From Candidatus Curtissbacteria bacterium RIFCSPLOWO2_02_41_11 (lineage in GTDB: Bacteria; Patescibacteriota; Microgenomatia; Curtissbacterales; GWA2-41-24), in the NCBI GenBank assembly GCA_001775055.1, contig MFBU01000022.1, positions 3,278 to 67,277 on the forward strand: 64,000 nucleotides of DNA, given 5' to 3'. Numbering within the stretch: position 1 is the first letter of the stretch; each line of letters opens with the position of its first letter. The notes beneath the pieces are model-generated. The model saw only the letters and a program-made list of their open reading frames with translations, was not told the origin of the DNA and ran no database searches. Of this stretch, positions 12,765 through 61,639 are shown one piece after another. Both the position numbers and the translations under genes were made by a program.

Positions 12765-12858
12765 AAACGATGCAAATATTCTAATTGATGCTAATTATAC
12801 GAATTGGTATTTTTTTATTAGTATCATTAGTATGCATTCGTATATTAGAATCGATTAA
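12765..12858 (-). promoter_or_regulatory. Intergenic region carrying a palindromic ATTCGTAT/ATACGAAT motif pair, shared with 28912-28998
   Basis: ATACGAAT at about 12796 and ATTCGTAT at about 12836 are reverse complements of each other. The flanking TTAGTATG and GATGCTAAT words also recur in the 28912-28998 spacer. The region lies immediately upstream of the minus-strand GT4 gene whose start is at 12764. Confidence 0.35.
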
Positions 12859-27297: not shown

Positions 27298-27741
27298 TTA
27301 CGAACGGGCTACAATAAAAATACCAAAAAGCATCACTACTATACCAACTATTCTTATAAAAGAAACATCCTCATTTAAAAATTTTATAGAACCAATGGTA
27401 GTAAACATAAAAACTATCGTTGCAAAAATTGGATAAGCCCGTGAGAGGTCATTAAATGTTAATACACGAAGCCAAATTAAAAAAGAAAGGCCATAAAGGC
27501 CAAGTCCTGCCAGGATAAATGGATTTGCCGCAGCTTTCGATATTTCAAGAAAAAGTTTTGTCAAGTTTCCACTCAAACCACCAAATGATAAAACCCCTTT
27601 TTTAAGAAGAATATTTGCCGTCACATTAAAAGTAACGCTTGTCAGTAAAAGAGCGTAAAAGTTTTGGAAAAAACTCATGGTGTGATCATACCATTGACAG
27701 CTGACAACTGACAACTGACCCTTCGATGGACTCAGGGTCAT
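27298..27741 (-). CDS. SMR/EamA-like 4-TM membrane protein (ArnE/ArnF-like lipid-linked sugar flippase subunit candidate). The start is uncertain (Met at 27741 or internal Met at ~27678).
   Basis: The core is about 125 aa with 4 hydrophobic helices. It lies immediately upstream of the DPM1-like GT2. The first 21 codons of the track ORF run through a GC-rich heptamer-repeat element. Confidence 0.4.
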   Translation of the reverse strand: MTLSPSKGQLSVVSCQWYDHTMSFFQNFYALLLTSVTFNVTANILLKKGVLSFGGLSGNLTKLFLEISKAAANPFILAGLGLYGLSFLIWLRVLTFNDLSRAYPIFATIVFMFTTIGSIKFLNEDVSFIRIVGIVVMLFGIFIVARS

Positions 27742-28911: not shown

Positions 28912-28998
28912 TTTTCTACATTCGTATGATTAGTATGAATTCGTATATTTGTATCGATGCTAATCTACTAATGGATGCTACTGATACGAATTTTAATC
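28912..28998 (-). promoter_or_regulatory. Intergenic region with ATTCGTAT (x2) and ATACGAAT half-sites, related to 12765-12858
   Basis: It shares TTAGTATGAATTCGTATATT, GATGCTAAT and ATACGAATT words with the 12765-12858 spacer. It lies upstream of the PIG-V-like gene start at 28911. Confidence 0.35.
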
Positions 28999-30258: not shown

Positions 30259-31023
30259 CTAGCGGCGTTCCCAATATTTGACATACGCGTAGAAGTGGTG
30301 TGCCGCCGAAAATAAAGCCCAGACAAACCCCCTAAAACCATCAACATAACCCCGATGTCTAACAAAAATATCGAAAAAAGTGACAAGTGGCTTTAGAACC
30401 ATGTAGTAAAAAACCGGCCAAGGCCCCCTACCCGGATCTATCTCTCTAAGCTTTTGAGCAGTTTGATCTGTATAACGGTCGGCTCGATAAAGGTATCTGG
30501 CAAATGAGGGATCGGCCATGTGAAGAATGTCGTTTTTTAGATACCCTACTTCCCCATCAATTGCAACCTGTTCATGAACACTAACTTCGGGAAGCCTGCC
30601 TTTGCCTCGTCTAAAAAGCCTAATCACACTATCAGGATAAGCTCCGCCCTTTGTTAAATAACCGCCTAAAAACCAATTGCGACGATTGATCCAAAAACCG
30701 TTCTCTTTGGGGTTTTTAGAGATAATTCCTTTGATCTCACCGACTAATTCTTTACTGACCCTTTCATCGGCATCCATTAGAAAAATCCAGTCGCTAGTGC
30801 AATTATCTATAGCTAAATTTTTATTAATGTGAAACATTGGTTTATTAGTTGTTTTAATAATTTTTGCACCCAGATTCTCTGCCAGTTCTCTGGTTCTGTC
30901 TGTTGATGACCCGTCAGCTACCACTATCTCATCGGCAAAATTTTTTAAAGACTCGATACAATCAACAATATTTTCCTCCTCATTAAATGTTGCCAGTGCA
31001 GCTGAAATTTTTATCTTTTTCAT
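30259..31023 (-). CDS. GT2-family glycosyltransferase (WaaE/KdtX-like subfamily); paralog of 51411-52172 and 56118-57023
   Basis: The motif 'ISAALATFNEEENIVDCIESLKNFADEIVVADGSSTDRT...MDADER' is present. The shared C-terminal 'GG.YPD...RLFRRGKG' motif links the three paralogs. Confidence 0.65.
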   Translation of the reverse strand: MKKIKISAALATFNEEENIVDCIESLKNFADEIVVADGSSTDRTRELAENLGAKIIKTTNKPMFHINKNLAIDNCTSDWIFLMDADERVSKELVGEIKGIISKNPKENGFWINRRNWFLGGYLTKGGAYPDSVIRLFRRGKGRLPEVSVHEQVAIDGEVGYLKNDILHMADPSFARYLYRADRYTDQTAQKLREIDPGRGPWPVFYYMVLKPLVTFFDIFVRHRGYVDGFRGFVWALFSAAHHFYAYVKYWERR

Positions 31024-32621
31024 TTTGGATGACCTATTTTAATCGCTTCTTTTCCGTTAGGATAATAAATTGTTTCAATGACTTCAAAGCCGCCGGGGAA
31101 ATTTCCGCTATCGGCAATAAAAAGCTCACTGGGAGTTGTCGGCGGTTTGGTGTCGAAGTAATATTTGTCAAAGTTTTGCCTCGTACCGCTTTGTTGATAA
31201 CTCCTGGGGTCATACTTAGTATTAAAAAGCCAGAACACGTACGCCTGTTCGATTGAATGATCGACATTAATTTTAGTGTATTGATTTTTGATTTTCTCGG
31301 ATTCTAGAACAGCTTCCTTATATCCATACTGCCAAAAATCTGCCTTGTCGTATGGATAATGTCTCCAGTAGTTATGAAGGTAAACTATGATTGATACACC
31401 AATCCATAAGATATAAAAATATTGAACAGGTTTTTTAAGTAAAAACTCCATAGAAAAAATTGAAACCAGCGCATAGGCACTAATGATCTGAAGCGCTGGG
31501 TCCATCGGTAGAGACCGGTTACCATGCGGATTAGGAACAGCCGGTGTTGCAGGAATTGGGGCAATCAGAAGCCATGCAAGAAGAAAGGCTGAAGTTTTAT
31601 TGCGATTTCTAACAAGCAAAAAGATACCATATAAAACTAGAGGAAATTGAAAAAGATAGACCATCCCTATATTTCCAATATGATGCCTGAAATTATCATC
31701 GCCTTTAGTGAAAAGAAAATTAAAATCAAAATGAGAAAGATAATTGCCAAACCATGTTTGGCCAATAACAAATCTTCTGTTATGAATATATTTGCCGAGC
31801 TTCGATCCCCTTTCCTGATCTTCTAGAATAAATTTTATTGATTTTTCGATATCCTCAAGTCTTGGTCTGCCAGTGGTAACTTCAAATCTTTGTAAGATTA
31901 CTTTTGGCGGTATTAATATTACAAGCGGCAGTCCGATTAGAATAGTAATGATGATAAAAATACCTAGATACCTTTTAGAAACGGTAAGTATCTCTTTTCT
32001 CCAAATAAAAAATGTTGCTATAAAAAGTAGCGGTACAAAAATCCGCTCTGAATGATAGGTATAAGTAGAAATCCCTAAAAATATGCCGCTTACTATTAAC
32101 CATCTTCTACTGGCTAACCCATATAAAAATGCAGTAATGGCTGCGACTGCAAAAAAAAGGCCAACCGTAGCCTCAAAACCGACTCGAGAAAATTGCAAGT
32201 GCCAAGGCGAAATGGCCAACATTAGCATAGATAGAAGAGCGATTGACTCACTCTTGACAACTGACAACTGACCACTGACATTTGACTTTTCAAAGATTTT
32301 TCTGGCTAAAAAATACATTGCTGGAACTGTCAAAAAACCAAAAAATGCGGAAGGAAGTCTTGCGGCAAATGGGGTTAGACCAAAAATTGCCACTGTCACT
32401 ACATTCAAATACATGTATAGAGGGGGTTTATAATCATCAAAGGAGCGATTGGTAATCGGCAAAAAGTTGCCGTATTCATCCCGTCCAGTTTTAAGAATCG
32501 AGTAGGCATTGTAAGCATTACTGTTTTCATCCCAATCCAAACTTAGTGGAATTTCTCCTAATTTATAAAATCTCAAAATAAAAGCCAAAACTAAAATCGC
32601 CCAAAAGATTTTTTTTGTCAT
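31020..32621 (-). CDS. ArnT/PMT-like GT-C glycosyltransferase, tandem paralog 1 of 5
   Basis: There are about 12 TM helices. The segment 'LDWDENSNAYNAYSILKTGRDEYGNFLPI' is the loop-1 DE motif. 'ISPWHLQFSRVGFEA' is conserved across the paralogs. The C-terminal soluble domain is about 120 aa. Confidence 0.65.
   Translation of the reverse strand: MTKKIFWAILVLAFILRFYKLGEIPLSLDWDENSNAYNAYSILKTGRDEYGNFLPITNRSFDDYKPPLYMYLNVVTVAIFGLTPFAARLPSAFFGFLTVPAMYFLARKIFEKSNVSGQLSVVKSESIALLSMLMLAISPWHLQFSRVGFEATVGLFFAVAAITAFLYGLASRRWLIVSGIFLGISTYTYHSERIFVPLLFIATFFIWRKEILTVSKRYLGIFIIITILIGLPLVILIPPKVILQRFEVTTGRPRLEDIEKSIKFILEDQERGSKLGKYIHNRRFVIGQTWFGNYLSHFDFNFLFTKGDDNFRHHIGNIGMVYLFQFPLVLYGIFLLVRNRNKTSAFLLAWLLIAPIPATPAVPNPHGNRSLPMDPALQIISAYALVSIFSMEFLLKKPVQYFYILWIGVSIIVYLHNYWRHYPYDKADFWQYGYKEAVLESEKIKNQYTKINVDHSIEQAYVFWLFNTKYDPRSYQQSGTRQNFDKYYFDTKPPTTPSELFIADSGNFPGGFEVIETIYYPNGKEAIKIGHPK
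32255..32287. repeat. In-frame heptamer tandem repeat (CTGACAA-type x4-5) inside ArnT-like paralog 1, encoding SGQLSVVK
   Basis: 'ttgacaactgacaactgaccactgacatttg' is seen directly. It is related to 27695-27780 and 59217-59236. Confidence 0.5.
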
Positions 32622-35910: not shown

Positions 35911-37622
35911 CTAATCTCTAATTCTCCGACATCGAATACACTAGTTCCGTCAAGCCTTGAGATTGTCTTAAGTTTTTGAACCGAAGGTGGGAGCGCATTG
36001 GGTGAAGTAACATACAACACCTTACCGGAAACCGAAGTTTCATTTAAACTGTCTGTGAAGCGTAATTTACCAAAACCGTCAACGTCTATAAAAAAGAATT
36101 TGTCTCTTGTAATTTGAGCGCTTTTCCAATACTCCCGAGGATCAAATTGCATATATAATAAAAAGTAAATGTAAGGTCTTCCTTGAGCTTTAGTCACTAC
36201 CACATAATCAACGTCATTGTATCTTGGTTTAATAAATTCTACCGCTTCTTTGTATCCAAACTGCCACTCTCCTGAATAATTTCTCGGCCAGTGAACATAA
36301 TACATATGCAGATAAAATAAAAAGTTAAAAGTAAAAAGTAAAAAGTAAAAAATTATAAAAAGTTTTTTATATCTAATTACTCGATAAAGATAAAATAAGC
36401 CAAAAGCGGCAAGTATTTGAAAAGTAGGCAAGATATGAATCATCCTGAGCGCATGGGGAGTTTCTCGGGCAGTTGCCGGTCCAAACGGTGAAATAAGAAG
36501 CCAACCAATAATTAAAAAGCGATATTTTTGTTTGGTAGCAAATAAAAAGTAGATACCAGCAAGAATAAATAGTAGATCAACATAATAAAGTTCGCCTACT
36601 TCCTGAACAGAAAGCCTTGGATTAACATCGCCTTTTGTAAAAAGGAACCTCGGATTGAATGAATCAAAATAATGGGTGAGATATTCATATGAATAGAATA
36701 GACGCCGGTTATGAATAATGTCTGACCACCAAGAAAAATTGTCTCTTGCGCGATACCGAATTGAGTCATTAATCGGTTGCAGATCTTTAAAAATAGTTAC
36801 TTCATCAAATCTCAGTCTGCCTTCAATAGTTTGGGTTGTAAAAATAAAAAGAGGCCAAAATAAAATACTAGTAATTAAGGCTGTTATTAAAACAATTTTG
36901 ATTTGGGCAAAAACCTGTTTTCGAAATTGAATCGCTAGTACTAAAAGAATAAAAGGGACAAACAAGCGTTGGCCTGTAAAAGTATACATCCCGGCAAGAA
37001 ACGAAAGAACAGACGGCAAAATCCATAATGGATTATCTTGAGCAAATTTCAGAAACAGCCAAATACCAAGAACTGAGAAAAAAAGACCCAGATTTGCTTC
37101 AAACGCGCCTCTTGAAAATTGAAGATGCCAAGGGGAAATAGCCAGGAAAAAGGCGGATAGTAAAGCAATTGTTTCAGAAGTACTAAAGGTACGAGAAGTA
37201 CCAGAAGTACGAGAGGTTAAGTTCAGAGATTGCTTTTCGTACCTTTCATACTTTTCGTACTTGTGATACTTTTCTACAAAGAGTTTTTTGGCCAGAAAAT
37301 ATGTCAATAAAACTGTCAAAACACCAAAAAAAGCAGATGGAAATCTAATTGTAAATTCAGTTAGGCCAAAGGCGGCAATTGAAGGCACTGTCGCATAGAT
37401 ATAGCCTGGTGGTTTGTAATCACCGAATGCTGCAAAGTTGGTAATTGGTAAAAATTTACCGTGTTCATCATGACCAGTTTTTAAAATTGAGTAGGCATTA
37501 TAACCAAGTGATGCCTCGTCCCAATAAAGAGAAGGTGGAACAGATCCGAGTTTATAAAACCTTAATACTGCCGCAATGAAAATAATAACGATAAGTATAT
37601 ATTTACTTAATTTTTTGGGCAT
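35907..37622 (-). CDS. ArnT/PMT-like GT-C glycosyltransferase, tandem paralog 3 of 5 (carries a repeat-hairpin insert)
   Basis: The motifs 'LYWDEASLGYNAYSILKTGHDEHGKFLPI' and 'ISPWHLQFSRGAFEA' are present. An insert 'KYHKYEKYERYEKQSLNLTSRTSGTSRTFSTSE' lies between the conserved blocks. Confidence 0.65.
   Translation of the reverse strand: MPKKLSKYILIVIIFIAAVLRFYKLGSVPPSLYWDEASLGYNAYSILKTGHDEHGKFLPITNFAAFGDYKPPGYIYATVPSIAAFGLTEFTIRFPSAFFGVLTVLLTYFLAKKLFVEKYHKYEKYERYEKQSLNLTSRTSGTSRTFSTSETIALLSAFFLAISPWHLQFSRGAFEANLGLFFSVLGIWLFLKFAQDNPLWILPSVLSFLAGMYTFTGQRLFVPFILLVLAIQFRKQVFAQIKIVLITALITSILFWPLFIFTTQTIEGRLRFDEVTIFKDLQPINDSIRYRARDNFSWWSDIIHNRRLFYSYEYLTHYFDSFNPRFLFTKGDVNPRLSVQEVGELYYVDLLFILAGIYFLFATKQKYRFLIIGWLLISPFGPATARETPHALRMIHILPTFQILAAFGLFYLYRVIRYKKLFIIFYFLLFTFNFLFYLHMYYVHWPRNYSGEWQFGYKEAVEFIKPRYNDVDYVVVTKAQGRPYIYFLLYMQFDPREYWKSAQITRDKFFFIDVDGFGKLRFTDSLNETSVSGKVLYVTSPNALPPSVQKLKTISRLDGTSVFDVGELEIR
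37176..37274. repeat. Inverted pair of 9-nt tandem repeats (GTACGAGAA-type arms) forming a ~100-nt imperfect hairpin, in-frame within paralog 3
   Basis: The left arm is 'ggtacgagaagtaccagaagtacgagag'. The right arm, 'cttttcgtacctttcatacttttcgtacttgtgatacttttc', is its approximate reverse complement. Confidence 0.5.
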
Positions 37623-37658: not shown

Positions 37659-38234
37659 CTAATTAAAAAAGATCTCATTACAAATTGAATTCATCTGCCA
37701 ACCGAAAATAAAATACCAGAAAGACATAATTACCAAGAGGATAAATACTATTTTAGCTAATTTTGTTTTTAGAAAAAGATCAATTCCCCAGAGAGAAAAG
37801 CTATACCAGGATATTACCAGAAGAAAAAAAGAGGCTTTTGAACTTAGAGTAAAAATTGCAATAAATGATGCGATTAAAATCAATATAAAATGGAATTTTG
37901 CTAAATACTTTCTTTTTTTAAAAACTTCTAAAAAGGCAGTTACTACTAGAATTAAGCCTACTGGACCTAAAAACTCCCCTAAGAATCTTGGCTGAAAAGT
38001 TGAAGCGAAAGATTTAGATAACTCAAAAATACCAACAGTTACCTTATTGTGAAACAACCTAGAAATATTCCTATCAACTCCCAAATCAGTATTGACATTA
38101 GTTTCAACACTAACTTTTATAGAAAGAGGGTTAAAGTAAAAACTTAAAAACTTTTTGCACCCAGTAGTTTGCCAACCTCTAAATGAAAAAAGAGAGAATA
38201 AAACGATAATAAAAAGAATCTTAATTTTGTCCAT
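37659..38234 (-). CDS. Small hydrophobic protein (191 aa); possible remnant or accessory subunit between ArnT-like paralogs
   Basis: An N-terminal signal-like helix is followed by a ~70-aa hydrophilic stretch and 3 TM helices. No recognisable motif was found. Confidence 0.25.
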   Translation of the reverse strand: MDKIKILFIIVLFSLFSFRGWQTTGCKKFLSFYFNPLSIKVSVETNVNTDLGVDRNISRLFHNKVTVGIFELSKSFASTFQPRFLGEFLGPVGLILVVTAFLEVFKKRKYLAKFHFILILIASFIAIFTLSSKASFFLLVISWYSFSLWGIDLFLKTKLAKIVFILLVIMSFWYFIFGWQMNSICNEIFFN

Positions 38235-39855
38235 TTACCTCCCAGAGGGTGTAAATATGTCTGCCGACTGAATCATCAACGGCAGCCAAAAAATTACCGT
38301 CTACTTTTTTCCATGAGGGAGCAACATAAAGAATTCTTCCCTGCCAGCCGGCAGGCAGGGCTTTATCGTAGATATTGACATCATCTGAAATAAAGACATA
38401 TTTATCGAAAGCATCTCTAGTACCGCCTGAATTTATAAATTTCTGCGGGTCATATTTTTGATAAAAAAGCAGATAGATATACGGTACCTGATTAATGTTG
38501 GTAACATAAACTTTATTAAATTGGTCTTGATATTTTTGCACTTGAGCAACCATTGCTTTGTAACCGTCTTGCCAGTCAGCTGCAAATTTTTTGGGATAGT
38601 GGATCAAAAGTAAATGCAAATAAGTTAAAAATGAATAGCCAATAATCACTATCATTATTATTTTTACTAGCAGCAATTTTTTTTGAGAAAAAATTAAATA
38701 GGCTCCAAATCCCGAAAAGAATGCTAAGGGAATCGCTATCTGGAGAGTTCTGTATGCATGAGGCGAAGGAGTAACAATGATTGCTGGAATGGGCGCTAAA
38801 ATTAACCAAGAAAACATTATTTTTTTTGTTTGCGCATTTAACTTTTTAAAAGCGATAATTGAAACTATCAATAAAATTCCTTCAAATAAATAAATTTGAC
38901 CCATATCGACCTGTGAGTGCCTCCCTATCTGATCACCTTTAAAAAACAAGAAGCTAGGAGAAAAATGATCAATGTAGGTATTAAATGCCAAATAGCTAAA
39001 ATAGAAAGGCCAGTACCAGTACTTTGACAAAAACCTAAGAGGCTTTTTAGACTTCTGATCATAATCAATACGGTTTGTTTCAAATCCGGCATAACTGAAC
39101 GCCGATTGAGAAATTGCTCTAGAGCGACCCTCTTTCGAAATTGTAAAAATTATGATCGGAAAAATTAGTATCAATGCTAAAAGTGCTGGCAATATCAATT
39201 TCGCGGCTATCTTTTTGACAACTTCCAGATAAATTAAAAGAAGTGAAATCACAAATAGAGGTGTAAAAATTCGATAAGCGTGGTAAAAATACATAGATAA
39301 AGTGAAAAGTCCCGCCGTCGCTAAAGCTATGGCGGGCAAGAAAAAGGCAGACCGAGGCTTCGTCTTTCGATCATCGATTAGAAACAAGAAAAAATAAACG
39401 GCAGAAGTTACGAAGAAAAGACCTACGGTTGATTCAAAACCAGCTCTGGAAAACTGTATATGCCAAGGTGAAATTGCCAGAAAAAAAGTACAAAATAGAG
39501 AAAGCCTAATATTTTTAGTCAATTTTTTAACAATAAAGAAAAAGACAATTATGGTCAAAGACCCAAAGAAGGCACTCGGGAAACGAACGGCAAATTCATT
39601 AAGGCCAAAAACAGCAATAGATAGAACTAGAAGATAGTGATAACCTGGCAATTTCCAATCACCGAAACTTTCAAAAAATAACGGCAAAGTAACGCCATGA
39701 TGATCCTTCCCTGTTTTAAGAATTGAATAGGCATCATAACCAAATACGGCTTCATCCCAATAAAGTCCTGGAGGATTGATACCCAATTTATAAAACCTCA
39801 AAATAAAAGCAGTAAATATGATTAAAATTAATAGAGTTATTTGGAATCTCTTCAT
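38221..39855 (-). CDS. ArnT/PMT-like GT-C glycosyltransferase, tandem paralog 4 of 5
   Basis: The motifs 'LYWDEAVFGYDAYSILKTGKDHHGVTLPL' and 'ISPWHIQFSRAGFES' are present, with no large insert. Confidence 0.65.
   Translation of the reverse strand: MKRFQITLLILIIFTAFILRFYKLGINPPGLYWDEAVFGYDAYSILKTGKDHHGVTLPLFFESFGDWKLPGYHYLLVLSIAVFGLNEFAVRFPSAFFGSLTIIVFFFIVKKLTKNIRLSLFCTFFLAISPWHIQFSRAGFESTVGLFFVTSAVYFFLFLIDDRKTKPRSAFFLPAIALATAGLFTLSMYFYHAYRIFTPLFVISLLLIYLEVVKKIAAKLILPALLALILIFPIIIFTISKEGRSRAISQSAFSYAGFETNRIDYDQKSKKPLRFLSKYWYWPFYFSYLAFNTYIDHFSPSFLFFKGDQIGRHSQVDMGQIYLFEGILLIVSIIAFKKLNAQTKKIMFSWLILAPIPAIIVTPSPHAYRTLQIAIPLAFFSGFGAYLIFSQKKLLLVKIIMIVIIGYSFLTYLHLLLIHYPKKFAADWQDGYKAMVAQVQKYQDQFNKVYVTNINQVPYIYLLFYQKYDPQKFINSGGTRDAFDKYVFISDDVNIYDKALPAGWQGRILYVAPSWKKVDGNFLAAVDDSVGRHIYTLWEVNGQN
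39311..39337. repeat. 27-nt GC-rich palindromic motif (CCCGCC-N15-GGCGGG) that is 24/27 identical to 59233-59259 in an unrelated gene
   Basis: 'cccgccgtcgctaaagctatggcgggc' here compares with 'cccgccttcgctaaagcttcggcgggc' at 59233. Both are in-frame and encode PA(I/E)AL(A)(T/K)AG. Confidence 0.5.
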
Positions 39856-46432: not shown

Positions 46433-47387
46433 ATTTATTTAAGACCTCCCTGTCAGATAGTGAATAAGCAGAGCTTGCGGTCCTCGTCTGCGCCTGCGGG
46501 TCTAAGTGCATAGTGAATAGTGAATAGTCAAAAATCAATTTTGGGAGCTGAATAATTGCCCAGAAAAAGCCAGCAAAGAAGGCAAGATCGAAAGTTGCCA
46601 TTGATTTGGCAAGATGATACGGTAACCAAAAAAGATGTTGGAGAAGCCAAAATGGGTCAGTAATGTTTTTCCAAACAAAAAGAAATTGGTTTTTATAAGA
46701 AATGGTCTTAATAAAAAACTCGGATCTGGATTTTTGAATTACCCCCTCTTGGTGGAAATGATTTACCTTTGACATTGGCTCAAACAAGCATCTATAACCC
46801 ATCCGCCATGCCCTAAATGAGAGGTCTATATCTTCCCAGTAAAAAGGGGCAAAGTTGGTGTCAAAACCGCCAAGTTCTAAAAATTTTCTTTTATCGAAAA
46901 GGCCTGATCCGCCAGAAACCCAAAGGGTTTCAGCTGATCTTGATGGTAAAGCAAAATGATTAACAAAACCCTTTTTAAAAATAGCTCCTCCTCTACCCCT
47001 TATCACAATCTTGCCATTTTCGTGGCTATGATCGGCAAGGCCAACTGCGAAAATCCGCTGGCTGGCTGATTCATTTTTGAAATGAGAAAGAGCAGGTGGC
47101 AAGAAATTTGCTTGCGGCGAAACATCGGAATTCAAAAGCAGCACCAGATCGCCATTAGCTTTTCTTACTCCCTCATTAACCGCGTGGGCAAACCCCTTAT
47201 TTTTTGCAAGTTGAATTACTTTTATCTGCCTAAAATTCTTTTGGAGAAAATCAACCGAATCGTCGCCTGATGCATCATCAACAATAATTATTTCACAATC
47301 AGCGCAATTTTTAATTACGTTGGGTAGATTCTTGAATAATAGTTGCCTACCGTTATAATTTGGGATTATTACTGATATTTTCGCCAT
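46419..47387 (-). CDS. GT2-family glycosyltransferase with a GC-rich C-terminal tail
   Basis: The motif 'ISVIIPNYNGRQLLFKNLPNVIKNCADCEIIIVDDASGDDS' is present. The last ~25 codons are encoded by the GC-rich region 46440-46530. Confidence 0.7.
   Translation of the reverse strand: MAKISVIIPNYNGRQLLFKNLPNVIKNCADCEIIIVDDASGDDSVDFLQKNFRQIKVIQLAKNKGFAHAVNEGVRKANGDLVLLLNSDVSPQANFLPPALSHFKNESASQRIFAVGLADHSHENGKIVIRGRGGAIFKKGFVNHFALPSRSAETLWVSGGSGLFDKRKFLELGGFDTNFAPFYWEDIDLSFRAWRMGYRCLFEPMSKVNHFHQEGVIQKSRSEFFIKTISYKNQFLFVWKNITDPFWLLQHLFWLPYHLAKSMATFDLAFFAGFFWAIIQLPKLIFDYSLFTMHLDPQAQTRTASSAYSLSDREVLNKFAKS
46451..46529. repeat. GC-rich segment plus ATAGTGAAT heptamer-type tandem (x3) at the 3' end of a GT2 gene, overlapping the start of the next gene
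   Basis: 'tgtcagatagtgaataagcagagcttgcggtcctcgtctgcgcctgcgggtctaagtgcatagtgaatagtgaatagtc' is seen directly. Confidence 0.4.
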
Positions 47388-49693
47388 AAATATAGTGCAG
47401 AAAGTGCTGTTAGAACAACGCCTACTGTTGAAAGATAAAGACCATTATAAAATGTTTGAGATCTAAATTTAAATTCAACTTCATGTTGACCTTCGGGAAC
47501 AATTACAGACTGAAACATAAAGTTCACCTTTTTAATCTCTGTTTTATTCCCATCAACATAAGCCTGCCAGCCAGGATAATAGACATTTGAAAGAATTAGT
47601 GGTGCTTGTTTATCAACATTAACTAAAAGTTTAAACGACTGATCAAAGTATTCGGTAAAACTTAAAGAGCTCTTAATATCTTGTTTTGGAAACTCAAATG
47701 AGCTCGAAACGGCACTGGTTTTAATATCAAAGTTTTTATCCAGCAATTTTGCCAGTTCTTGTTCTTTCCTTGTAACTTTGACGACTTGATTTACGAAAAA
47801 TGCTCGGGGCAGTACATTTTTATTTAGATAAACTTTTGTATCGCCCTCCTGTATTATTTTTTCGAAATCACTACTTGATAATTCATCAAAAGTTAGAACA
47901 TACTTAACATTAAGAAAATTAGCGATTTGTGAGTCATATTTTTGGGGTGTAACTATTCTATTAAAAGATCCAGCAGGAGCTGGTTTACCCGATTGCCAGC
48001 TTGAGACTAACTGAGCATAGTCTTTTAAGAAAAGCGGATCATAACCATCGACAGATTCTATTTTAAAAACACTTGAGGTATTAGGGTGAAGAATCCTTCT
48101 ATCAGTTGACATTATCCTAAACGGTTTCTCTTGAGAAGTTAGATATTGTATTGATTTGGTCTCGGGAAAAATCCAAGATAGCTTTGAAAATGAAGTGAAT
48201 TTATAACCAAACCGGAAAAGTTCTCCAAGTGTAACAGCAAATAAAACAAGAATGATTAATTTCTTTGAAAGGTTGAAATACCAAAAAATACTAGTTATGA
48301 AAAGAATAAATACAGTAACTATTGGCAAGGCCAGATTTCTTAAGGCTATGCTGCTTGCCGAAATGTTGGAAACTGTTGGAAAAGAATTTTTATTAAGCAC
48401 CGTATAGATAACTAACAATAATAAGACAAAAAAGATTAAAATTTGAGGAACAAAAATTTTTTTATCCTTTTTGTTTTTTAAAAAATAGTCGAGCCCGTAA
48501 GCAGATAAAACGCTCATTGCAAAAACAAATAAAAATAAAATTCTTGATGGCTGCAGTGATGATAAAAAAGGTGTTTTTAAAAGGTAAGGAATTTTCGAGA
48601 TAGGATTAGCCAGCGCTAAAATTATTGATATAACCGCAAGAAAGATAAAGAAAATTGCATGAGGTTTTTTTTTAAGAATAGTCAGTAAAGCAAGTGCAAG
48701 AGGAATTATTCCAATGAAACTGACAAATTCTGCCCAGTTCCAGACTCCCCAATAATTGTATGTAGTTGGACTACCAAAAAAATCGGGAGCAATAAGCTGG
48801 ATAAAATGTTGTATTGGCAGAAACCAATCAGGTCTTTGGGGATAATAACTTTGATCTACCTCTCTTGCTGATAATTTGATAAATTCCAATGCCGGCAAAA
48901 GTTGTACTGAGGAGACTAAAATTCCCAAAATAAGAGCAACTATGGTAAGAACTGTTGGCGTAAGTTTTCTAAACTTATAAATTAAAAAGGCAAAATACAT
49001 TAATGTAGCTAGAAATACATACAAAGCAGTTTGAGCATGACCAGCGAAGATTGTTTGAGAAGCTGAAAAAACTATAATAAAAAACCATAGAACTGATTGT
49101 TTGTTAAATAATTTATTCAATGACAAAAGTATTAATGGCAACCACACAGCCGTTGTCACAATAGTCCCCCAGGTCAACCAAGCAATAAAAAAACCTGAAA
49201 AAGGTAAAACAAAACCTCCAAAGACCGATGCTACTGGGGAAATTTTTAAGTTTCTCAAGAAGAAAAACATAAGAAGACTTGTTAAGATCGGCGGCAGGAT
49301 TATCTGAATTGACCAAGCTATTTTAAATGGAAAAATGAAAAAGAAAATATTAAATACCTGAAATGTTGAAGATTGAATATTTGCCAAAAGCGGTTGACCT
49401 GAAAAGCTATAAGGATTCCATAGAGGTAGATTTCCTTCCTTTATATTAAATACTGCCAAATTGCGCCATGGATATGTCTGCAAGACCGGATCTGTTATCA
49501 GAGGATTTTTAACGGGAAATTTCCCTACATTGTAACCATCATACGTTTGATCTCTCCAAGGGTGGTAAAGTCCTAAAAGATCATCGGCAGGGATAGGCAC
49601 TTTACCAATTAGCAAATTTGGCAAGAAAAAAAGAAATGTTAAGATGCAAACGATTACTGCCCCAAAAAAAGTCTTAGAAGATAATTTTTTCAT
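47369..49693 (-). CDS. Large polytopic membrane protein, YfhO-like GT-C glycosyltransferase candidate
   Basis: The protein is 774 aa. The 'PIPADDLLGLYHPWR' DD motif follows TM1. About 14 TM helices are followed by a ~230-aa C-terminal extracytoplasmic domain and a final TM helix. Confidence 0.4.
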   Translation of the reverse strand: MKKLSSKTFFGAVIVCILTFLFFLPNLLIGKVPIPADDLLGLYHPWRDQTYDGYNVGKFPVKNPLITDPVLQTYPWRNLAVFNIKEGNLPLWNPYSFSGQPLLANIQSSTFQVFNIFFFIFPFKIAWSIQIILPPILTSLLMFFFLRNLKISPVASVFGGFVLPFSGFFIAWLTWGTIVTTAVWLPLILLSLNKLFNKQSVLWFFIIVFSASQTIFAGHAQTALYVFLATLMYFAFLIYKFRKLTPTVLTIVALILGILVSSVQLLPALEFIKLSAREVDQSYYPQRPDWFLPIQHFIQLIAPDFFGSPTTYNYWGVWNWAEFVSFIGIIPLALALLTILKKKPHAIFFIFLAVISIILALANPISKIPYLLKTPFLSSLQPSRILFLFVFAMSVLSAYGLDYFLKNKKDKKIFVPQILIFFVLLLLVIYTVLNKNSFPTVSNISASSIALRNLALPIVTVFILFITSIFWYFNLSKKLIILVLFAVTLGELFRFGYKFTSFSKLSWIFPETKSIQYLTSQEKPFRIMSTDRRILHPNTSSVFKIESVDGYDPLFLKDYAQLVSSWQSGKPAPAGSFNRIVTPQKYDSQIANFLNVKYVLTFDELSSSDFEKIIQEGDTKVYLNKNVLPRAFFVNQVVKVTRKEQELAKLLDKNFDIKTSAVSSSFEFPKQDIKSSLSFTEYFDQSFKLLVNVDKQAPLILSNVYYPGWQAYVDGNKTEIKKVNFMFQSVIVPEGQHEVEFKFRSQTFYNGLYLSTVGVVLTALSALYLWRKYQ

Positions 49694-57023: not shown

Positions 57024-58492
57024 GATTTGGAAAGCAAAGAGCCAATGATCATTTTAGCATCTTCCACCAGATGCTTTTTAAAAATAGCGAGTGAAAGCAC
57101 AAAATAAACTATTGCCCCAAAAAGGATAATTAAAATTAGACTAGGTATACCTTGCACAAAATTTTGCTGAATTGTTCTTATTAAGAGAAACATAACTATT
57201 GATGTTAAAAGCGGGCCAAAAATACTCCTTCCGACAGAAATTGGAATTTCCTTTTTAACAATATAGATCGTAATAAGTGATGTTGATGCAACAATAGCAG
57301 ATGCAATACCTACACCGACAAAACCAAAATTTAAAACTAGAGGAATCGTCAAAATCCATGTCGAAGCTGTCCAGAAAAGCATCAAATTTAAAACTATTTT
57401 GGAACGGCCAGTAGCAAAAAGTGCATTAGTAAAAGTTGTCGATATTGACGAAAAAATACTGTTAACTGCAAACAGGTACAGCAAAGGCAAAGCTGGCTCC
57501 CATTTTTGATATTTGGGAATTACCTCGATAAGTTTTGGAGCAATAGCAGTTATCCCAAAGACAGAAGGATAAACAAGATATGTAACAAAAAATAGAGATT
57601 TTTCGATGGCTTTGCCCAACTCTTGTTTATGTTCTTGGAGTCTTGAGTAAGCAGGGAAAGTAACTTTGTTAACACTATCCATAAAAAATCTAAGCGGTAA
57701 AAAGGCGAATTTTTGAGACCAACCGATGTAACCGATTTGACCGAAGGTAAGAATCTTGCCTAGAACAACAACCAGAAGATCATCTTTCAAAAGGGCAATA
57801 ATGCTATTTAACTGAAATGGTATTCCGAAGGATGTAAGTTTTTTGGCAATGTTTTTATCGAAACTAAAAGATGGTTTCCACGGGGCAAGAATATAAATGA
57901 GCATTAGACCGGCAATACCCCTAGCCAGCACAGCCCAGGTAAAACTTGTTATCCCAAATCCTAAAATAGCCAAGACAACAGCTGTTGTATAAAAAACAAT
58001 GTTTTCGGCAACTTGAGGAATAACAAGCTTTGTAAAATTTAATCCTCTCTCAAGAATAATGGAAGGGATTGTTTTTAAAGAAGAAAGCAAGAGAGAAAAA
58101 ATCAAGATCCTAACCAACCATAAACCTTGATTGTCAAGATTGTAAAAATCGGTTATGGTTTTTGAAAAAATCAACCCTAATAAAACAAGAATCGCAACAA
58201 TAGTTTGCTGGATTGTAAAGGTGGTAGACAAGTCTTTTTGGTTTAACTCTTCTTTTTTTTGAATAAGAGCGGCGGCAAGTCCAATGTCAGAAAAATAAAC
58301 GAAAATGTTAATTAAGGCTGAAACAAAAACGTAAATTCCATAAGTAGGCTCATCCAGTATAATTGTAAGAACAAAAACTGCTATGTAAGAGAAAATCTGA
58401 ATAAAGAAAGTTCTAAGAGTAAAAGTCACAACTCCCGATATTGCCTTCTTCTTGATTAACTCTAAGTCTAGTGAATATCGCGGATTTTCCAT
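57020..58492 (-). CDS. Wzx/PST-family (MOP superfamily) polysaccharide flippase
   Basis: The protein is 490 aa with about 12-14 TM helices. Its N-terminus 'KKKAISGVVTFTLRTFFIQIFSYIAVFVLTIIL' is typical of O-unit flippases. Confidence 0.6.
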   Translation of the reverse strand: MENPRYSLDLELIKKKAISGVVTFTLRTFFIQIFSYIAVFVLTIILDEPTYGIYVFVSALINIFVYFSDIGLAAALIQKKEELNQKDLSTTFTIQQTIVAILVLLGLIFSKTITDFYNLDNQGLWLVRILIFSLLLSSLKTIPSIILERGLNFTKLVIPQVAENIVFYTTAVVLAILGFGITSFTWAVLARGIAGLMLIYILAPWKPSFSFDKNIAKKLTSFGIPFQLNSIIALLKDDLLVVVLGKILTFGQIGYIGWSQKFAFLPLRFFMDSVNKVTFPAYSRLQEHKQELGKAIEKSLFFVTYLVYPSVFGITAIAPKLIEVIPKYQKWEPALPLLYLFAVNSIFSSISTTFTNALFATGRSKIVLNLMLFWTASTWILTIPLVLNFGFVGVGIASAIVASTSLITIYIVKKEIPISVGRSIFGPLLTSIVMFLLIRTIQQNFVQGIPSLILIILFGAIVYFVLSLAIFKKHLVEDAKMIIGSLLSKS

Positions 58493-60330
58493 TGTCTGAT
58501 TATAAAGAAAAATAAAATTAGTAAAGATGTTAGACTTATTATATTGCCGGTAAACCTGTCGAAGGTATCTTTAAATTGTATTTCAACTCTATGAACTCCT
58601 TCGGGGATATTTAAGGTAATTAATTTAAGACGGTTATTGTCAGCTATTGTAAATTTTTTACCATCCACTTTAGCATTCCAGCCCGGAAAGTTAAAAACAT
58701 TAACCCTAACCTGTAATGGATCTTTAGCGTTAACAATAAAGTTGATCTTGGAAGGTGTCGAATTTAAACTGTTGATTTGAGCCAAACCGGATAATATTTG
58801 CACCTCCTCGGTCGGTATCTCTGACTTTTTGATATTCACGACATTGGTGCCTAACTCGCTTTTTTTTAGTTCAACTCCTTTCGGAATATATTCAAAGGAA
58901 GATTGAGAAATATCCCAGTTAATAATCTCTTCTGAAGTAGCAATTTCATCTGTTAAATCTGGGCGATATGTCTGTGGTTTAAAAAGTTTAAAGTTCGGGA
59001 TAGCAAGAAGGACTACAAGAATTAACGAAGCTATCAGTCTTAATATCGGCAATCTCAAAAGATAGACAAGTGCACCTGCTAGGATTGATGAGAAGAGTGA
59101 TGTGAATATTAGAAAACGCCAAGGGAATTGGGTATAGGCAAGAGGCGGTATCAAATCCCAAATCGGCTTTGAGTAAAAAGTGGTCATAAAGGCACTGAAT
59201 AGAAAAAGGACAAAGAAGACAATTGACAATTGACCCGCCTTCGCTAAAGCTTCGGCGGGCGAGCCATTGGCTCCTGAGAGTTTGAGTCTAATTAAATGAG
59301 CAATTGCCAGAACCGATGCTGCAATTGATGTGAAAACGTGCAGTTTGCCGATTTTGAAGGAAATCCCGTCGGTAAGACCAGCAGCAGAACCGCCAAAACC
59401 CCAAGGCCAGTTCCAAAGTTGTTGTGGGTAAATAAAGTGAATGTTGTAATTTGCGAGATTAACTAAAAGTAACTGATCAACAATAGTGTATTTTTTTTCA
59501 AGAAGGGCTGGTAGCCAAAAGAATGCGGAAAGTCCGAAAGAATAAACAATTGACGATAAACAATTGACGATAAACAATTTCTTATTTTCTGCTTTCCAAA
59601 TCAGAAATAGTAAATAAACTGGCAAGATGAGCATAAAGGGAAGAAATATCAGATTATGGGTAACCATCAGAAGTGCTAAAAAAATTGCTGATATGTAAAT
59701 GTAGAAAGCTTTTTCTGTCCTCTTTAGCCTATACAGTGACCAAAGGATTAGTGGTAACCAGACAAAAGAAAATGACTCACTCAATGCCCCTCTGACATAA
59801 ATGTCTAGGGCCCTGTAAGGTACTAAAAGATAAAAAACACTAGCTACAACCGCTGAATATTTATCCCAAAATTCCTTTGCTAGTATGTACATTGCGAAAC
59901 CTGAAGCAATAATTGATGCAAAAAAAACTAGTTTGATGGAATTTATGAAACCAGAACCTATTAGATGGAATAGTTCTCCAAGCATATAAACAAAAGGCGG
60001 ATAGAAAACAAACAATGGATAACCAAATCCGAATCCTAAACCATCAACCCAGCGGACAGGAAATTGACCTGATTTTAAAGCCTCGTCAAACAAAAAAAGC
60101 CTGGCTATTTGTTGGTCGTCATGAATGACATAAAGTCCAGGTTTTAAAAGAGGCAAAGAGATGACTATTGAAGCAAGAAGAATAACTAAGATTGCAACAA
60201 AATTTTTAATCATTGGGAATATAAATGTAAACTTGCTTATTAAATCCTTTCCTGAAATCAACAAGTAATTCACCCTTATTATAGTAGATAGAAAGCGTTG
60301 GATCATGGTAGATTGCCCAAATGGCAGCAT
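58468..60330 (-). CDS. Large polytopic membrane protein, GT-C-like (same class as 41483-43234). The real start is probably the internal Met at ~60213.
   Basis: The 'YVIHDDQQIARLFLFDEAL' HD motif follows TM1. There are about 13 TM helices plus a C-terminal extracytoplasmic domain and a final TM helix. The gene carries three in-frame repeat elements. Confidence 0.4.
   Translation of the reverse strand: MLPFGQSTMIQRFLSTIIRVNYLLISGKDLISKFTFIFPMIKNFVAILVILLASIVISLPLLKPGLYVIHDDQQIARLFLFDEALKSGQFPVRWVDGLGFGFGYPLFVFYPPFVYMLGELFHLIGSGFINSIKLVFFASIIASGFAMYILAKEFWDKYSAVVASVFYLLVPYRALDIYVRGALSESFSFVWLPLILWSLYRLKRTEKAFYIYISAIFLALLMVTHNLIFLPFMLILPVYLLFLIWKAENKKLFIVNCLSSIVYSFGLSAFFWLPALLEKKYTIVDQLLLVNLANYNIHFIYPQQLWNWPWGFGGSAAGLTDGISFKIGKLHVFTSIAASVLAIAHLIRLKLSGANGSPAEALAKAGQLSIVFFVLFLFSAFMTTFYSKPIWDLIPPLAYTQFPWRFLIFTSLFSSILAGALVYLLRLPILRLIASLILVVLLAIPNFKLFKPQTYRPDLTDEIATSEEIINWDISQSSFEYIPKGVELKKSELGTNVVNIKKSEIPTEEVQILSGLAQINSLNSTPSKINFIVNAKDPLQVRVNVFNFPGWNAKVDGKKFTIADNNRLKLITLNIPEGVHRVEIQFKDTFDRFTGNIISLTSLLILFFFIIRQWKIRDIH
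59217..59259. repeat. Heptamer tandem (GACAATT x2 plus GACCC) fused to a GC-rich CCCGCC-N15-GGCGGG palindrome, in-frame
   Basis: 'agacaattgacaattgacccgccttcgctaaagcttcggcgggcgagcc' is seen directly. It is related to 27695, 32255 and 39311. Confidence 0.5.
59544..59579. repeat. Tandem 14-nt repeat (AAACAATTGACGAT x2.6), in-frame
   Basis: 'aaacaattgacgataaacaattgacgataaacaatt' is seen directly. It shares the CAATTGAC core with the 59217 heptamers. Confidence 0.45.
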
Positions 60331-61639
60331 CGCCAGAAAGCGTTTGTCTCTCCCAACGGCTATTAAGCGGATATAAAATTACTGAGTCTGAAGGCAAAGT
60401 TGGAAAGCTTCTTTTGAGATTGGTACTTGCTTCACGGGCAGTTTTCTGAGCTTCTATCATCCATGAATTTATTTTGTAAAAAGAGAGAGTTGTATAAGAA
60501 GTAAATATCCATATCAATAAAATGGGGATAACCATGAAACTGTTCCTACTTAGGATGACGAGATATGCAATCAAGAAATAGATACCCATAGAAGAAAGCG
60601 TTAAATACATTGTGAAGGTATGGTTTGGCAAAATTAAAACAGGGGAAATTCCAGCAACAAACCAGAAGAGAGCAAATGTTAATAAACGAATATTTAAATG
60701 TAATCTTTGCTTAAGAAGGTAAAATATTGGGAGCCCAATTCCAAGAGCCACAATCCATATTGCGCCTATAAAATTCTTTACGACTAAAGGCCAAAATTCA
60801 AGTAGAAACTTACTATTAAAAACGATCAGATTGTTTACTACTTGTTTTTTAAACTCTTCGGGAATATTAAAAGTCCAGAGAAAATACCAAAGCAGAGCCT
60901 TAATCAACTCTTGATTAAATGAAAGTTGATATTCAGTAATCTGCGGGATTTTAATAAAGAATAATCTTAAAATGATGTATATGAATGAGACTAAGATAAA
61001 AGGGGCAAGGATTTTAAGGGATTTCATGAGAGAATTTCCAAGAACTAAAAAATAATAAAATCCGAAAATAACCGGCCAAGTTACTGAAAATTCGAACGAG
61101 CCAATTGTAATTAGAAAAACAATTAAAGATAAAGCATAAAAAATTATTCTTTTTCTTTCAAGAAATTTTAGAAAAAGCAAAGAAGTCAAAAGCCAAAAAA
61201 AGGTCCCCGTTATATTGTAGGCAGCAGCTATCCAAGTTATTGCCATAAAGTGGATAGATGATGTAAGCCAAAAAAAAGCACTAAGAAAGCCTATCCAAAT
61301 ATTGCCTGTAATTTTCTTTACAAGAACAATTAGTAAAATTGCACTTGAAAATAAAAGAGCAAATGTTAACACCCTAAAACCGCTAGGATCAAATCCGAAT
61401 ATTTTTAAAGATAAGAAAAAATAATTCTGCAGACTTATTGGTCTATAAGCAATAATGTCATCTCTGAATTTAAAGAACTCTAAATACTGACCCAAGTTTT
61501 GAGCCTTTGAAATATTAATCTCGAAAAAATCATCTTGAAAAAAATAATAATTTAAACTCGAATGATAAAGAGCAAAAGAAATAAAAAATATTATTAAAAT
61601 CAGAATTGCAAAAGTCTTACTCGATAATCTTTCAATCAT
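60206..61639 (-). CDS. Polytopic membrane protein with DD motif after TM1 (GT-C-like, unassigned family); tandem paralog A
   Basis: The motif 'YYFFQDDFFEIN...FKFRDDIIAYRP' is present, with about 12 TM helices and a short C-terminal soluble tail. Confidence 0.35.
   Translation of the reverse strand: MIERLSSKTFAILILIIFFISFALYHSSLNYYFFQDDFFEINISKAQNLGQYLEFFKFRDDIIAYRPISLQNYFFLSLKIFGFDPSGFRVLTFALLFSSAILLIVLVKKITGNIWIGFLSAFFWLTSSIHFMAITWIAAAYNITGTFFWLLTSLLFLKFLERKRIIFYALSLIVFLITIGSFEFSVTWPVIFGFYYFLVLGNSLMKSLKILAPFILVSFIYIILRLFFIKIPQITEYQLSFNQELIKALLWYFLWTFNIPEEFKKQVVNNLIVFNSKFLLEFWPLVVKNFIGAIWIVALGIGLPIFYLLKQRLHLNIRLLTFALFWFVAGISPVLILPNHTFTMYLTLSSMGIYFLIAYLVILSRNSFMVIPILLIWIFTSYTTLSFYKINSWMIEAQKTAREASTNLKRSFPTLPSDSVILYPLNSRWERQTLSGDAAIWAIYHDPTLSIYYNKGELLVDFRKGFNKQVYIYIPND

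Follow-up and report, generated by a model that had tools for sequence, protein, structure and literature searches.

Two short GC-rich patches in the window, a stretch of 64,000 nucleotides from a Candidatus Curtissbacteria genome, are each probably a copy of a dispersed, non-autonomous, REP-like hairpin repeat of about 30 nt that entered its host gene independently of the other. Both patches belong to a repeat family that is present in several phyla. Comparison with orthologues gives a clean pattern of presence and absence, and the nucleotides are conserved independently of the reading frame.

The first copy lies at 39311–39340 on the minus strand (nhmmer E=2.7e-9 over 39340..39311) and the second at 59234–59263, also on the minus strand (nhmmer E=7.4e-10 over 59263..59234). 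Copy 1 reads CCCGCCGTCGCTAAAGCTATGGCGGGC on the forward strand (39311–39337), which is where a sequence-only reading of this DNA had placed it, and copy 2 is CCCGCCTTCGCTAAAGCTTCGGCGGGC (59234–59260), shifted rightwards by one base from the 59233–59259 given in that reading. The 24/27 identity claimed between the two patches is upheld. On the coding (minus) strand the copies are CTTG-C-CCGCC-AT-AGCTTTAGCG-AC-GGCGG-G and CTCG-C-CCGCC-GA-AGCTTTAGCG-AA-GGCGG-G, respectively. The proposed CCCGCC/GGCGGG hairpin does have a 6-bp GC stem, but its loop is 14 nt and not 15 nt; a window search for CCCGCC-N15-GGCGGG gave no match, whereas CCCGCC-N14-GGCGGG matched both copies. The predicted fold consists of the 6-bp GC stem, a 3x3 internal loop, 2 bp and a tetraloop, with a predicted RNA fold energy of -14.8 to -17.2 kcal/mol. 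Both copies are translated in frame, as had been noted, to give PAIALATAG (residues 174–182 of a PMT-like protein) and (S)PAEALAKAG (PAEALAKAG being residues 358–366 of a 620-aa ORF). The local GC content is 32–38%, rather than the 30% or so first put forward.

Chance resemblance between the patches, or an assembly or sequencing artefact, is favoured only by the shortness of the motif. A degenerate form of the 27-mer with up to three mismatches matched the window twice, against 0.00 matches expected from 100 shuffles. Of the 27-mers in the window only about 0.2% have at least 18 G+C, and when the window was compared with itself, all against all, no more than 15 diagonals reached at least 24/27. 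Copy 1 and copy 2 form the sole GC-rich pair among these; the rest are homologous positions in paralogues, or AT-rich repeats. Additionally, identical proteins are present in independent NCBI, JGI and ENA assemblies and other samples contain diverged orthologous copies. Chance or artefact is refuted by these results and we give it practically no weight. A family HMM, trained without any sequence from the window or from Curtissbacteria, found exactly two sites in the window (E = 7e-10 and 3e-9) and no further degenerate copies within the 64 kb. Head-to-head doublets and arrays are absent from the window.

The consensus of the wider family is about 30 nt long, 5'-CYTG-Y-CCGCC-RW-AGCTTTAGCG-NM-GGCGG-R. 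The pattern CCGCCNNCGCTAAAGCNNNGGCGG has matches in at least 119 genome stretches from about 10 phyla, where about 4 would be expected by chance (19 fixed bases, 596 Gb, both strands). Among the matches listed are about 31 from the CPR, 22 from Bacteroidota, 25 from Alphaproteobacteria, 11 from Verrucomicrobiota, 10 from Acidobacteriota, 5 from Planctomycetota and others; isolates and a complete chromosome are among the carriers. Viral contigs yielded 25 loci with the real pattern, whereas three controls with a permuted core yielded 0, 1 and 1. Together with the shuffles, the size of this family disposes of the caveat, raised with the original observation, that the similarity might lie within chance expectation. 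Conservation has sharp edges at -12 and +17 around the core, defining a unit of 30 nt. The 5' tag of the family, C-Y-T-G, is unpaired (CTTG, CCTG or CTCG) and the stem co-varies: in 152 copies the sixth stem pair, Y:R, is C:G 63 times, T:A 61 times and T:G 11 times.

Family copies are found in intergenic positions, next to tRNA genes, in tandem arrays (L019 and L103) and within long ORFs, where each of the four stop-free frames is represented. Acidobacteria and Alphaproteobacteria have head-to-head doublets (L017, L030, L031, L038, L052, L055, L061, L074 and L087), and the flanks of the retrieved loci hold additional copies at about 1 per 55 kb. In genomes of up to 50% GC there are 30 intragenic and 31 intergenic copies by crude ORF calls. 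At 30 nt the unit comprises a whole number of codons, and stops are absent from four of its six reading frames, so an insertion within a gene can survive. A relative (L120) has a possible decayed intergenic copy at 4833–4851 (E = 0.27). BLAST gave no match to the element in 5,426 E. coli genomes or in GenBank phages, and only weak partial matches in PLSDB plasmids; an Rfam search of 39250–39400 at a permissive threshold gave chance-level matches only (E about 7). Literature searches by peptide, DNA string and keyword returned no description of the element, the DNA-string matches being primers or coincidences, including a TnpB probe.

Copy 1 lies in a gene for a 544-aa GT-C glycosyltransferase (38221–39855, minus strand; Pfam PMT/PMT_2, GT39, ArnT-like), the homologues of which are named Candidatus Curtissbacteria GT39. 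About 95 of 100 PMT-like orthologues have a gap of 9 aa at the position of the insert, and the same gap is found in four paralogues in the window. The net gain of filled over empty orthologues is 27 nt (39311–37), a clean indel: the filled site reads TTCTT-G, CCCGCC...GGCGGG and then A-CTTTTCAC, where the empty site has TTCTTA and then CTATTCAC. In an AF2 model of the protein (pLDDT 93.7) the insert lengthens the N-terminal end of the transmembrane (TM) helix 173–188.

Copy 2 lies in a gene for a PTPS-related/YfhO-class membrane protein (58468–60330, minus strand; 620-aa ORF), whose orthologues carry PF10131 PTPS_related; database orthologues start at M40 and have 581 aa. In the AF2 model (pLDDT 87.7) the insert opens helix 319–344 (581-aa numbering), with a short loop before it. 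Directly downstream of this copy there is a heptamer tandem repeat, TCAATTG x2.4 (59217–59233, minus strand), found by TRF and a pattern search. Most YfhO-like orthologues have the heptamer array alone at this loop; one empty orthologue (L123) has (TTGTCAG)x4. The element occurs at the same site as window copy 2 in two orthologues (L121 and L122), and in L122 the 30 nt are flanked on each side by TCAATTG. It is 24–28/30 identical between orthologues where the host genes are 64–73% identical, and the stems of orthologous copies have changed in a compensatory manner, to CCGAC/GTCGG and CCTGC/GTAGG. The site of copy 2 is occupied in L153 by a 66-nt palindrome tagged with CTCG; in L154 the 30-nt element there contains a nested element of 33 nt, also tagged with CTCG. 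Palindromes tagged with CYTG or CTCG have been inserted repeatedly, and nested, in the YfhO-like loop, and the heptamer-repeat loop is an apparent insertion hotspot.

These comparisons bear on the reading that both membrane enzymes require P-A-x-A-L-A-x-A-G as a conserved protein motif. The two copies are translated in the same frame, and both peptides are Ala-rich, start with Pro, end with Gly and are predicted to be helical at the N-terminus of a helix. However, the peptide is absent from about 95% of PMT-like orthologues, from most YfhO-like orthologues and from the four window paralogues. The rare carriers do not have the same residues in AT-rich codons, as would be expected of a protein motif, but the same GC-rich DNA motif. 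The same DNA encodes PAEALAKAG in the window and, in a second frame, RRSFSEVG in other YfhO-like orthologues (L121), and elsewhere it is intergenic or is read in three other frames. A conserved protein motif is refuted by the orthologue comparison and we consider it very improbable.

Ectopic gene conversion, in which the patch was copied from one host gene to the other, had also been suggested from the sequence. In its favour, both copies lie in the same orientation within minus-strand genes of one gene cluster and are 24/27 identical. However, the flanks of the copies share nothing, the similarity ending with the element. The copies belong to different subfamilies, with the interiors ATAGCTTTAGCGAC and GAAGCTTTAGCGAA (AT..AC and GA..AA), and their three differences are exactly those that separate these two subfamilies across phyla. 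Each window copy is in fact identical to copies in other, distant phyla. Additionally, a related genome has the insert in the PMT-like gene but none in the YfhO-like gene, both on one 677-kb contig. The different subfamilies make conversion between the two genes unlikely and, taken together, the data refute it for practical purposes; it is hardly credible as the source of either patch.

We also looked for a mobilising gene and for signs of movement. All-against-all clustering of the ORFs from 144 element-bearing loci gave no transposase or other common neighbour gene. A phmmer search with approximate sequences of the IS608 TnpA and the E. coli RAYT found one RAYT-like ORF (L007), which is flanked by its own, different REPs. 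No target-site duplication was seen at the resolvable filled and empty sites. The JGI metagenomes contained no empty allele with the exact flanks of the window for either gene, and nothing therefore points to recent mobility in this lineage. In neighbour-joining trees the carriers of each insert are scattered and the internal branches are short. This scatter may reflect a single gain with poor tree resolution, recombinational spread or repeated gain.

Under our preferred explanation, insertion of a dispersed repeat, each copy would have entered its host gene separately in an ancestor within Candidatus Curtissbacteria. The element has an unpaired 5' CYTG and, after it, a 6-bp GC stem around the conserved RW-AGCTTTAGCG-NM. 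It may spread as single-stranded hairpin DNA that is handled in trans by a putative HUH/Y1-type enzyme (RAYT or IS200-like) or by another host-encoded factor, and the hairpin may be maintained by the copying mechanism or by selection on DNA or RNA structure. An insertion would survive in a gene that can accommodate 9–10 additional residues, small or helix-forming, without harm; in the window genes the tolerated spot is probably the N-terminal end of a TM helix beside a loop.

Alternatively, the hairpin could be a functional RNA or single-stranded DNA element (for example a structure bound by a widely conserved factor, or one that acts in transcriptional or translational pausing, mRNA stability or termination) that is kept by selection, and so domesticated or useful instead of tolerated selfish DNA. 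This would fit the retention of the DNA sequence while the reading frame differs between lineages, the compensatory changes in the stem and the near-identical sequence in about 10 phyla. In AT-rich genomes some intergenic copies have terminator-like T-runs after the hairpin, and several lie directly after tRNA-Ser or tRNA-Leu. The interior of the element, a GUA/GAA or GAA/GAA internal loop, presumably resembles known purine-rich RNA modules. Against a functional element, the intragenic copies show no orientation bias relative to the direction of the host gene (16 sense, 14 antisense), the host genes are unrelated across phyla, most orthologues do well without the hairpin and there is no match to an Rfam family. 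Neither window copy has a U-tract or was flagged by a terminator scan, and an intrinsic terminator was rejected for these two sites. Overall, we regard a functional element as possible but rather unlikely. Such a function is compatible with an insertional origin. The near-identity across phyla and the frame-independent conservation may point to a cellular function rather than to pure selfishness.

Insertion of the dispersed repeat has several consequences. The element accounts for odd GC-rich islands and for short Ala-rich or Arg/Ser-rich protein inserts in the CPR and other uncultured bacteria, and such inserts can be a source of error in alignments, domain boundaries and structure models. 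The element also accounts for spurious small ORFs with the recurring peptides RRSFSEGG, AFAKASADK and PPSLKLRR. Near-identity over 30 nt in distant phyla requires that these phyla have either a mobilising enzyme or a cellular partner in common, and to identify this partner would reveal new biology. The YfhO-like loop, where conserved DNA is read in two frames, offers a natural system in which to test for selection on nucleic-acid structure within genes, and the element could be used as a presence/absence marker within Curtissbacteria. We suggest, tentatively, that the family may be an undescribed minimal class of repeat: a 30-nt CYTG hairpin, near-invariant in about 10 phyla, the Candidate Phyla Radiation among them, which enters genes as readily as spacers (and is viable there because its length is 3n and four frames are open), re-targets a heptamer hotspot, nests within itself and is constrained at the nucleotide level whatever the frame. 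Such a class would imply a conserved mobilising or binding factor that these phyla have in common.

The sequence-only reading had likened the patches to a REP- or MITE-like hairpin that had landed in coding sequence. The REP likeness stands but the MITE label is wrong, because the element is a single 30-nt hairpin with no terminal inverted repeats around a body (70–300 bp) and no target-site duplication. The GC clusters of yeast mitochondria are short, GC-rich, palindromic, mobile-looking units in an AT-rich genome that sometimes lie in coding sequence. The element is also short, GC-rich, palindromic and sometimes within genes, but the GC clusters belong to a eukaryotic organelle, are unrelated in sequence and have a short flanking target duplication. 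The Rickettsia palindromic elements (RPEs), of about 100–150 bp, are known only from Rickettsia and lie in frame in protein-coding genes. Like these, the element is a palindromic repeat in frame in functional genes of a small AT-rich genome, with an encoded peptide that is tolerated at permissive sites. In contrast with the RPEs it is 30 nt long, GC-rich and found across phyla, and we rejected membership since only the in-frame insertion agrees, and not the length, sequence or host range. With IS200/IS605 ends and PATEs the element shares a hairpin that follows a short guide-like tetranucleotide, insertion without duplication and a plausible single-strand DNA mechanism. However, those elements have two unlike ends and a body of at least 100 nt, in contrast with one 30-nt hairpin, and no TnpA is linked to the element.

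The closest resemblance is to REPs and REPINs, which are mobilised by RAYT/TnpA-REP, fall into super-families tagged GTAG and CGTC and are occasionally found inside ORFs in several species (PMC3733652). Neither CTTG nor CAAG occurs as a string in that paper, and the motif is absent from its supplements too. Like REPs, the element is a GC-rich imperfect palindrome in the range of 20–40 nt (30 nt), one end of which bears a conserved tetranucleotide that is left unpaired; it is found singly, in tandem arrays and as head-to-head doublets, has no target-site duplication and is present in several phyla. It differs in that it is tagged with CYTG rather than with one of the REP tags (GTAG and CGTC), that the 144 loci showed no cognate RAYT and that the apparent density of copies is modest. 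REPs lie predominantly outside genes, but in low-GC genomes about half of the copies of this element are intragenic, as are both copies in the window. Finally, it is the sequence of the element itself, and not only its architecture, that recurs in about 10 phyla: classical REPs co-evolve with their resident RAYT, whereas this element is near-identical across phyla.

There are two GC-rich patches in the window with 24/27 identity to each other: copy 1 is the 27-mer CCCGCCGTCGCTAAAGCTATGGCGGGC at 39311-39337 and copy 2 is the 27-mer CCCGCCTTCGCTAAAGCTTCGGCGGGC at 59234-59260. The sequence-only reading had recognised this near-identical partner but placed it one base too far to the left, and it was right that GC-rich patches stand in AT-rich DNA, although the GC content of the window is 32-38% rather than about 30%. 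Both copies contain the stem CCCGCC/GGCGGG with the arms separated by 14 nt; the N15 pattern, corresponding to the 15-nt loop first described, has zero matches, whereas the N14 pattern matches both. Only about 0.2% of the 27-mers in the window have 18 or more G+C, and a search with the degenerate 27-mer, allowing 3 mismatches at most, gave 2 matches against 0.00 expected, so the similarity is far beyond chance. When every 27-mer was compared with every other on either strand, only 15 diagonals reached 24/27 identity or better; apart from this pair they link paralogous genes at homologous positions, or AT-rich repeats. Copy 1 lies in 38221..39855, which encodes a GT39/ArnT-like protein (Pfam PMT/PMT_2), and copy 2 in 58468..60330, whose orthologs carry PF10131 (PTPS_related) and which has a YfhO paralog at 47369..49693. 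Both host genes are on the minus strand, which is the coding strand of both copies, and the patches are in frame as claimed, translating as PAIALATAG (copy 1) and PAEALAKAG (copy 2). Protein homologs assign the window to Candidatus Curtissbacteria (Microgenomates, CPR), with one protein 100% identical to that of bacterium RIFCSPLOWO2_02_41_11. The observation of two shared hairpin patches is confirmed.

The motif position is gapped in four paralogs of the window. For the PMT-like protein, the 100 best homologs, 50-70% identical, were aligned with MAFFT, and about 95 of them read FL---------LFTLSMY, with exactly nine residues missing. The residues are present in five sequences, namely the query and four with the diverged versions PAIAFASAG, PAKALAAAG, SAIAFATAG and PAIALASAV. 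The filled DNA reads ...TTCTT-G, then the insert CCCGCCATAGCTTTAGCGACGGCGGG, then A-CTTTTCAC, and the inserts in orthologous loci L120 and L124 are CCCGCCATAGCATTTGCGTCGGCGGG and CCCGCCAAAGCTTTAGCGGCGGCGGG. In the empty ortholog, L125, ...GCCTTCTTA is followed directly by CTATTCAC. Filled and empty sites differ by a clean 27-nt indel and there is no target duplication in this comparison. A conserved protein motif is ruled out by this indel and by the roughly 95 homologs that do not have the nine residues. The carriers also have about 30 nt upstream of the insert in common.

In the YfhO-like gene the patch lies in a hypervariable loop between two TM helices. This loop is K-LST-VNCQL-STVFF in most orthologs, SGANGSPAEALAKAGQL in the query and its relatives of at least 73% identity, and QLLVRRSFSEVGS or LLALRSFSEVGS in others. 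The DNA explains these protein variants as either a heptamer array or an inserted element. The empty ortholog L123 has (TTGTCAG)x4, while L122 has CTTGCCCTGCGTAGCTTTAGCGAAGTAGGG between TCAATTG and TCAATTG, and L121 has CTTGTCCGACGAAGCTTTAGCGAAGTCGGA between CAATTG and TCAGTTG. The insertion site is homologous in the window, L121 and L122, but in the window 2 additional nt precede the element and one more heptamer follows it, which puts it in a different reading frame. One related genome has, on a single 677-kb contig, the PMT-like insert (P0002) and an empty YfhO-like site (P0144). Insertion at this site is recurrent: ortholog L153 (approximately 1950-2060) carries a 66-nt CTCG-tagged palindrome at the same junction after CAATTG, and in L154 (approximately 1940-2040) a 33-nt CTCG-tagged element is nested within the 30-nt element. 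The heptamer array is the baseline loop of the orthologs and the landing site of the hairpin elements, a hotspot with at least three independent insertions. L153 and L154 also suggest a wider super-family of CYTG/CTCG-tagged palindromes.

Tandem heptamers (GTTGTCA/ATTGTCA, minus strand) are found in three unrelated ORFs of the window: an SMR-like 147-aa gene (27695-27719), a PMT-like paralog, 31020..32621 (32255-32280; loop SNVSGQLSVVKSES), and the YfhO-like loop (59217-59234). The pattern has 6 matches against 0.02 expected. The YfhO-like gene also contains a perfect 14-nt tandem repeat (ATAAACAATTGACG x2.7, 59542-59579; translation KKLFIVNCLSSIVY). The start of its ORF (620 aa), in the region 60213-60330, is doubtful: the ORF shares 125 nt with the upstream gene 60206..61639, and as database orthologs begin at M40 (581 aa) the actual start is probably 60213.

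Both copies are members of a dispersed family. An HMM made without window or Curtissbacteria sequences recovered both (E = 7e-10 and 3e-9) and no further copies in the window. Relative to the core, information content drops to zero before -12 and after +17, defining a 30-nt unit, on the window coding strand 5'-C-Y-T-G-Y-CCGCC-[G/A][A/T]-AGCTTTAGCG-[N][A/C]-GGCGG-R-3'. The hairpin covaries: among 152 copies the Y...R pair is C:G in 63, T:A in 61 and T:G in 11, the position after it is G:A in 109 and A:C in 30, and core-only matches include the compensatory stems CCTGCC/GGCAGG and CGCTCC/GGAGCG. Tandem arrays occur, as do head-to-head doublets (Acidobacteria and Alphaproteobacteria), and AGCCTTGGCG, a GC-rich sibling core, is common at the same loci.

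Scanning one genome per GTDB species with CCGCCNNCGCTAAAGCNNNGGCGG gave at least 119 matching genome stretches, against our own estimate of about 4 by chance. By record title, the matches listed include about 31 CPR, 25 Alphaproteobacteria, 22 Bacteroidota, 11 Verrucomicrobiota, 10 Acidobacteriota and 5 Planctomycetota genomes, with a few Gammaproteobacteria, Nitrospirota, Desulfobacterota and Armatimonadota and no Firmicutes, Actinobacteria, Cyanobacteria or Archaea. They include isolates (three Bradyrhizobium, Terrimonas, Flaviaesturariibacter) and a complete Maricaulis chromosome, and host GC content is 34-68%. In IMG/VR there are 25 loci with the real pattern and 0, 1 and 1 for three permuted-core controls. 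E. coli genomes and GenBank phages lack the element, and PLSDB plasmids have almost none of it, which may be why it has been overlooked. Interior subtypes are common to different phyla. Copy 1 is of the AT..AC subtype and copy 2 of the GA..AA subtype, each identical to copies in distant phyla, which argues against the suggestion of gene conversion between the two genes. Taken together, the filled and empty sites and the multi-phylum family support the other original suggestion, a hairpin element that landed in coding sequence, and both patches are very probably inserted members of this family.

Intergenic copies often lie directly downstream of tRNA-Ser or tRNA-Leu, both class II (L036, L066, L068, L078, L085 and L103), in one case overlapping the CCGCC of the acceptor end, and in L033 a copy separates tRNA-Ile from tRNA-Ala within an rRNA spacer. 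Another hairpin motif, GTCATTGCGAG...CTCGCAATGAC, recurs in different phyla and adjoins or surrounds the 30-nt element in L022, L102 and L104; environmental bacteria may harbour several families of short GC-rich hairpins side by side. The PMT-like gene of copy 1 has a second GC-rich palindrome, CCCTGCCAGCCGGCAGGCAGGG (38339-38360, 7-bp stem), which encodes ALPAGWQG, scores as terminator-like when read on the plus strand and is unrelated to the family. Two PMT-like paralogs have large in-frame inserts in the same loop after KKLF (37158-37283 and 33905-34060), one an AT-rich hairpin of about 100 nt (KYEKYERYEK...TSRTSGTSRT; RNA fold -27 kcal/mol) and the other GC-rich (about 45 aa), and orthologs have many further unrelated inserts there. 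A 46-nt intergenic direct repeat (12810-12855 and 28913-28958, 83% identical, with building blocks of 9-10 nt) closely precedes two minus-strand genes and could be a promoter or leader common to both.

Long ORFs hold the element in all four stop-free frames (PPSLKLRR, AFAKASA[D/G]K, RRSFSEGG and PAEALAKAG), the remaining frame of each strand having TAA or TAG. By crude gene calls, genomes of up to 50% GC have 30 copies inside genes (16 sense, 14 antisense) and 31 between genes, and at other loci too the peptide is missing from homologs of the element-bearing ORFs. In confident AF2 models of the host proteins (pLDDT 93.7 and 87.7) both window inserts follow directly on a loop and lengthen a TM helix at its N-terminal end, the hydrophobic PAIALATAG in the membrane segment and the charged PAEALAKAG at the loop edge. 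Among orthologs the element is 24-28/30 identical, compared with 64-73% for the genes, and in the YfhO-like case this persists across two reading frames, so it is the nucleic acid (DNA or RNA), not the peptide, that is constrained or homogenised. The main rival explanation is that the hairpin functions as an RNA or DNA structure recognised by a conserved partner, and this is compatible with insertional origin.

As for spread, the element would be mobilised in trans as a single-strand hairpin, a proposal made by analogy with REP/RAYT and IS200/IS605 in which we have low confidence. There is no duplication at the resolved insertion sites. Several results, including the different tag described below, count against the proposal. 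A linked enzyme was not found in 144 loci, and the sole RAYT-like gene seen, an ORF at 3929-4474 (within 3690-4550) on the Candidatus Parcubacteria contig L007, has different REPs on either side, the hairpins GTAACGCACTAAAGTGCGTCATTCC and GGAACGACAGACTTTAGTCTGTTAC; it does show that CPR genomes contain RAYT/REP systems. For neither insert did an empty allele turn up with the same flanks. The carriers are scattered in NJ trees of poor resolution, a distribution compatible with a single origin, recombination spread or repeated gain.

Literature searches found no published description of the 30-nt element, and the nearest known kind is the REP/REPIN. Like REP/RAYT and IS200/IS605 elements, it combines a hairpin with a 5' tetranucleotide and inserts without duplication, but its tag is CYTG where described REPs have GTAG and CGTC (PMC3733652). 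Palindromes that genes tolerate within their reading frames have precedents in intragenic REPs and in the in-frame RPEs of Rickettsia (PMC3733652). In contrast with REP/REPIN, the element is near-invariant in sequence over about 10 phyla including CPR, and it has a high intragenic share, a 3n unit and nested, hotspot behaviour.
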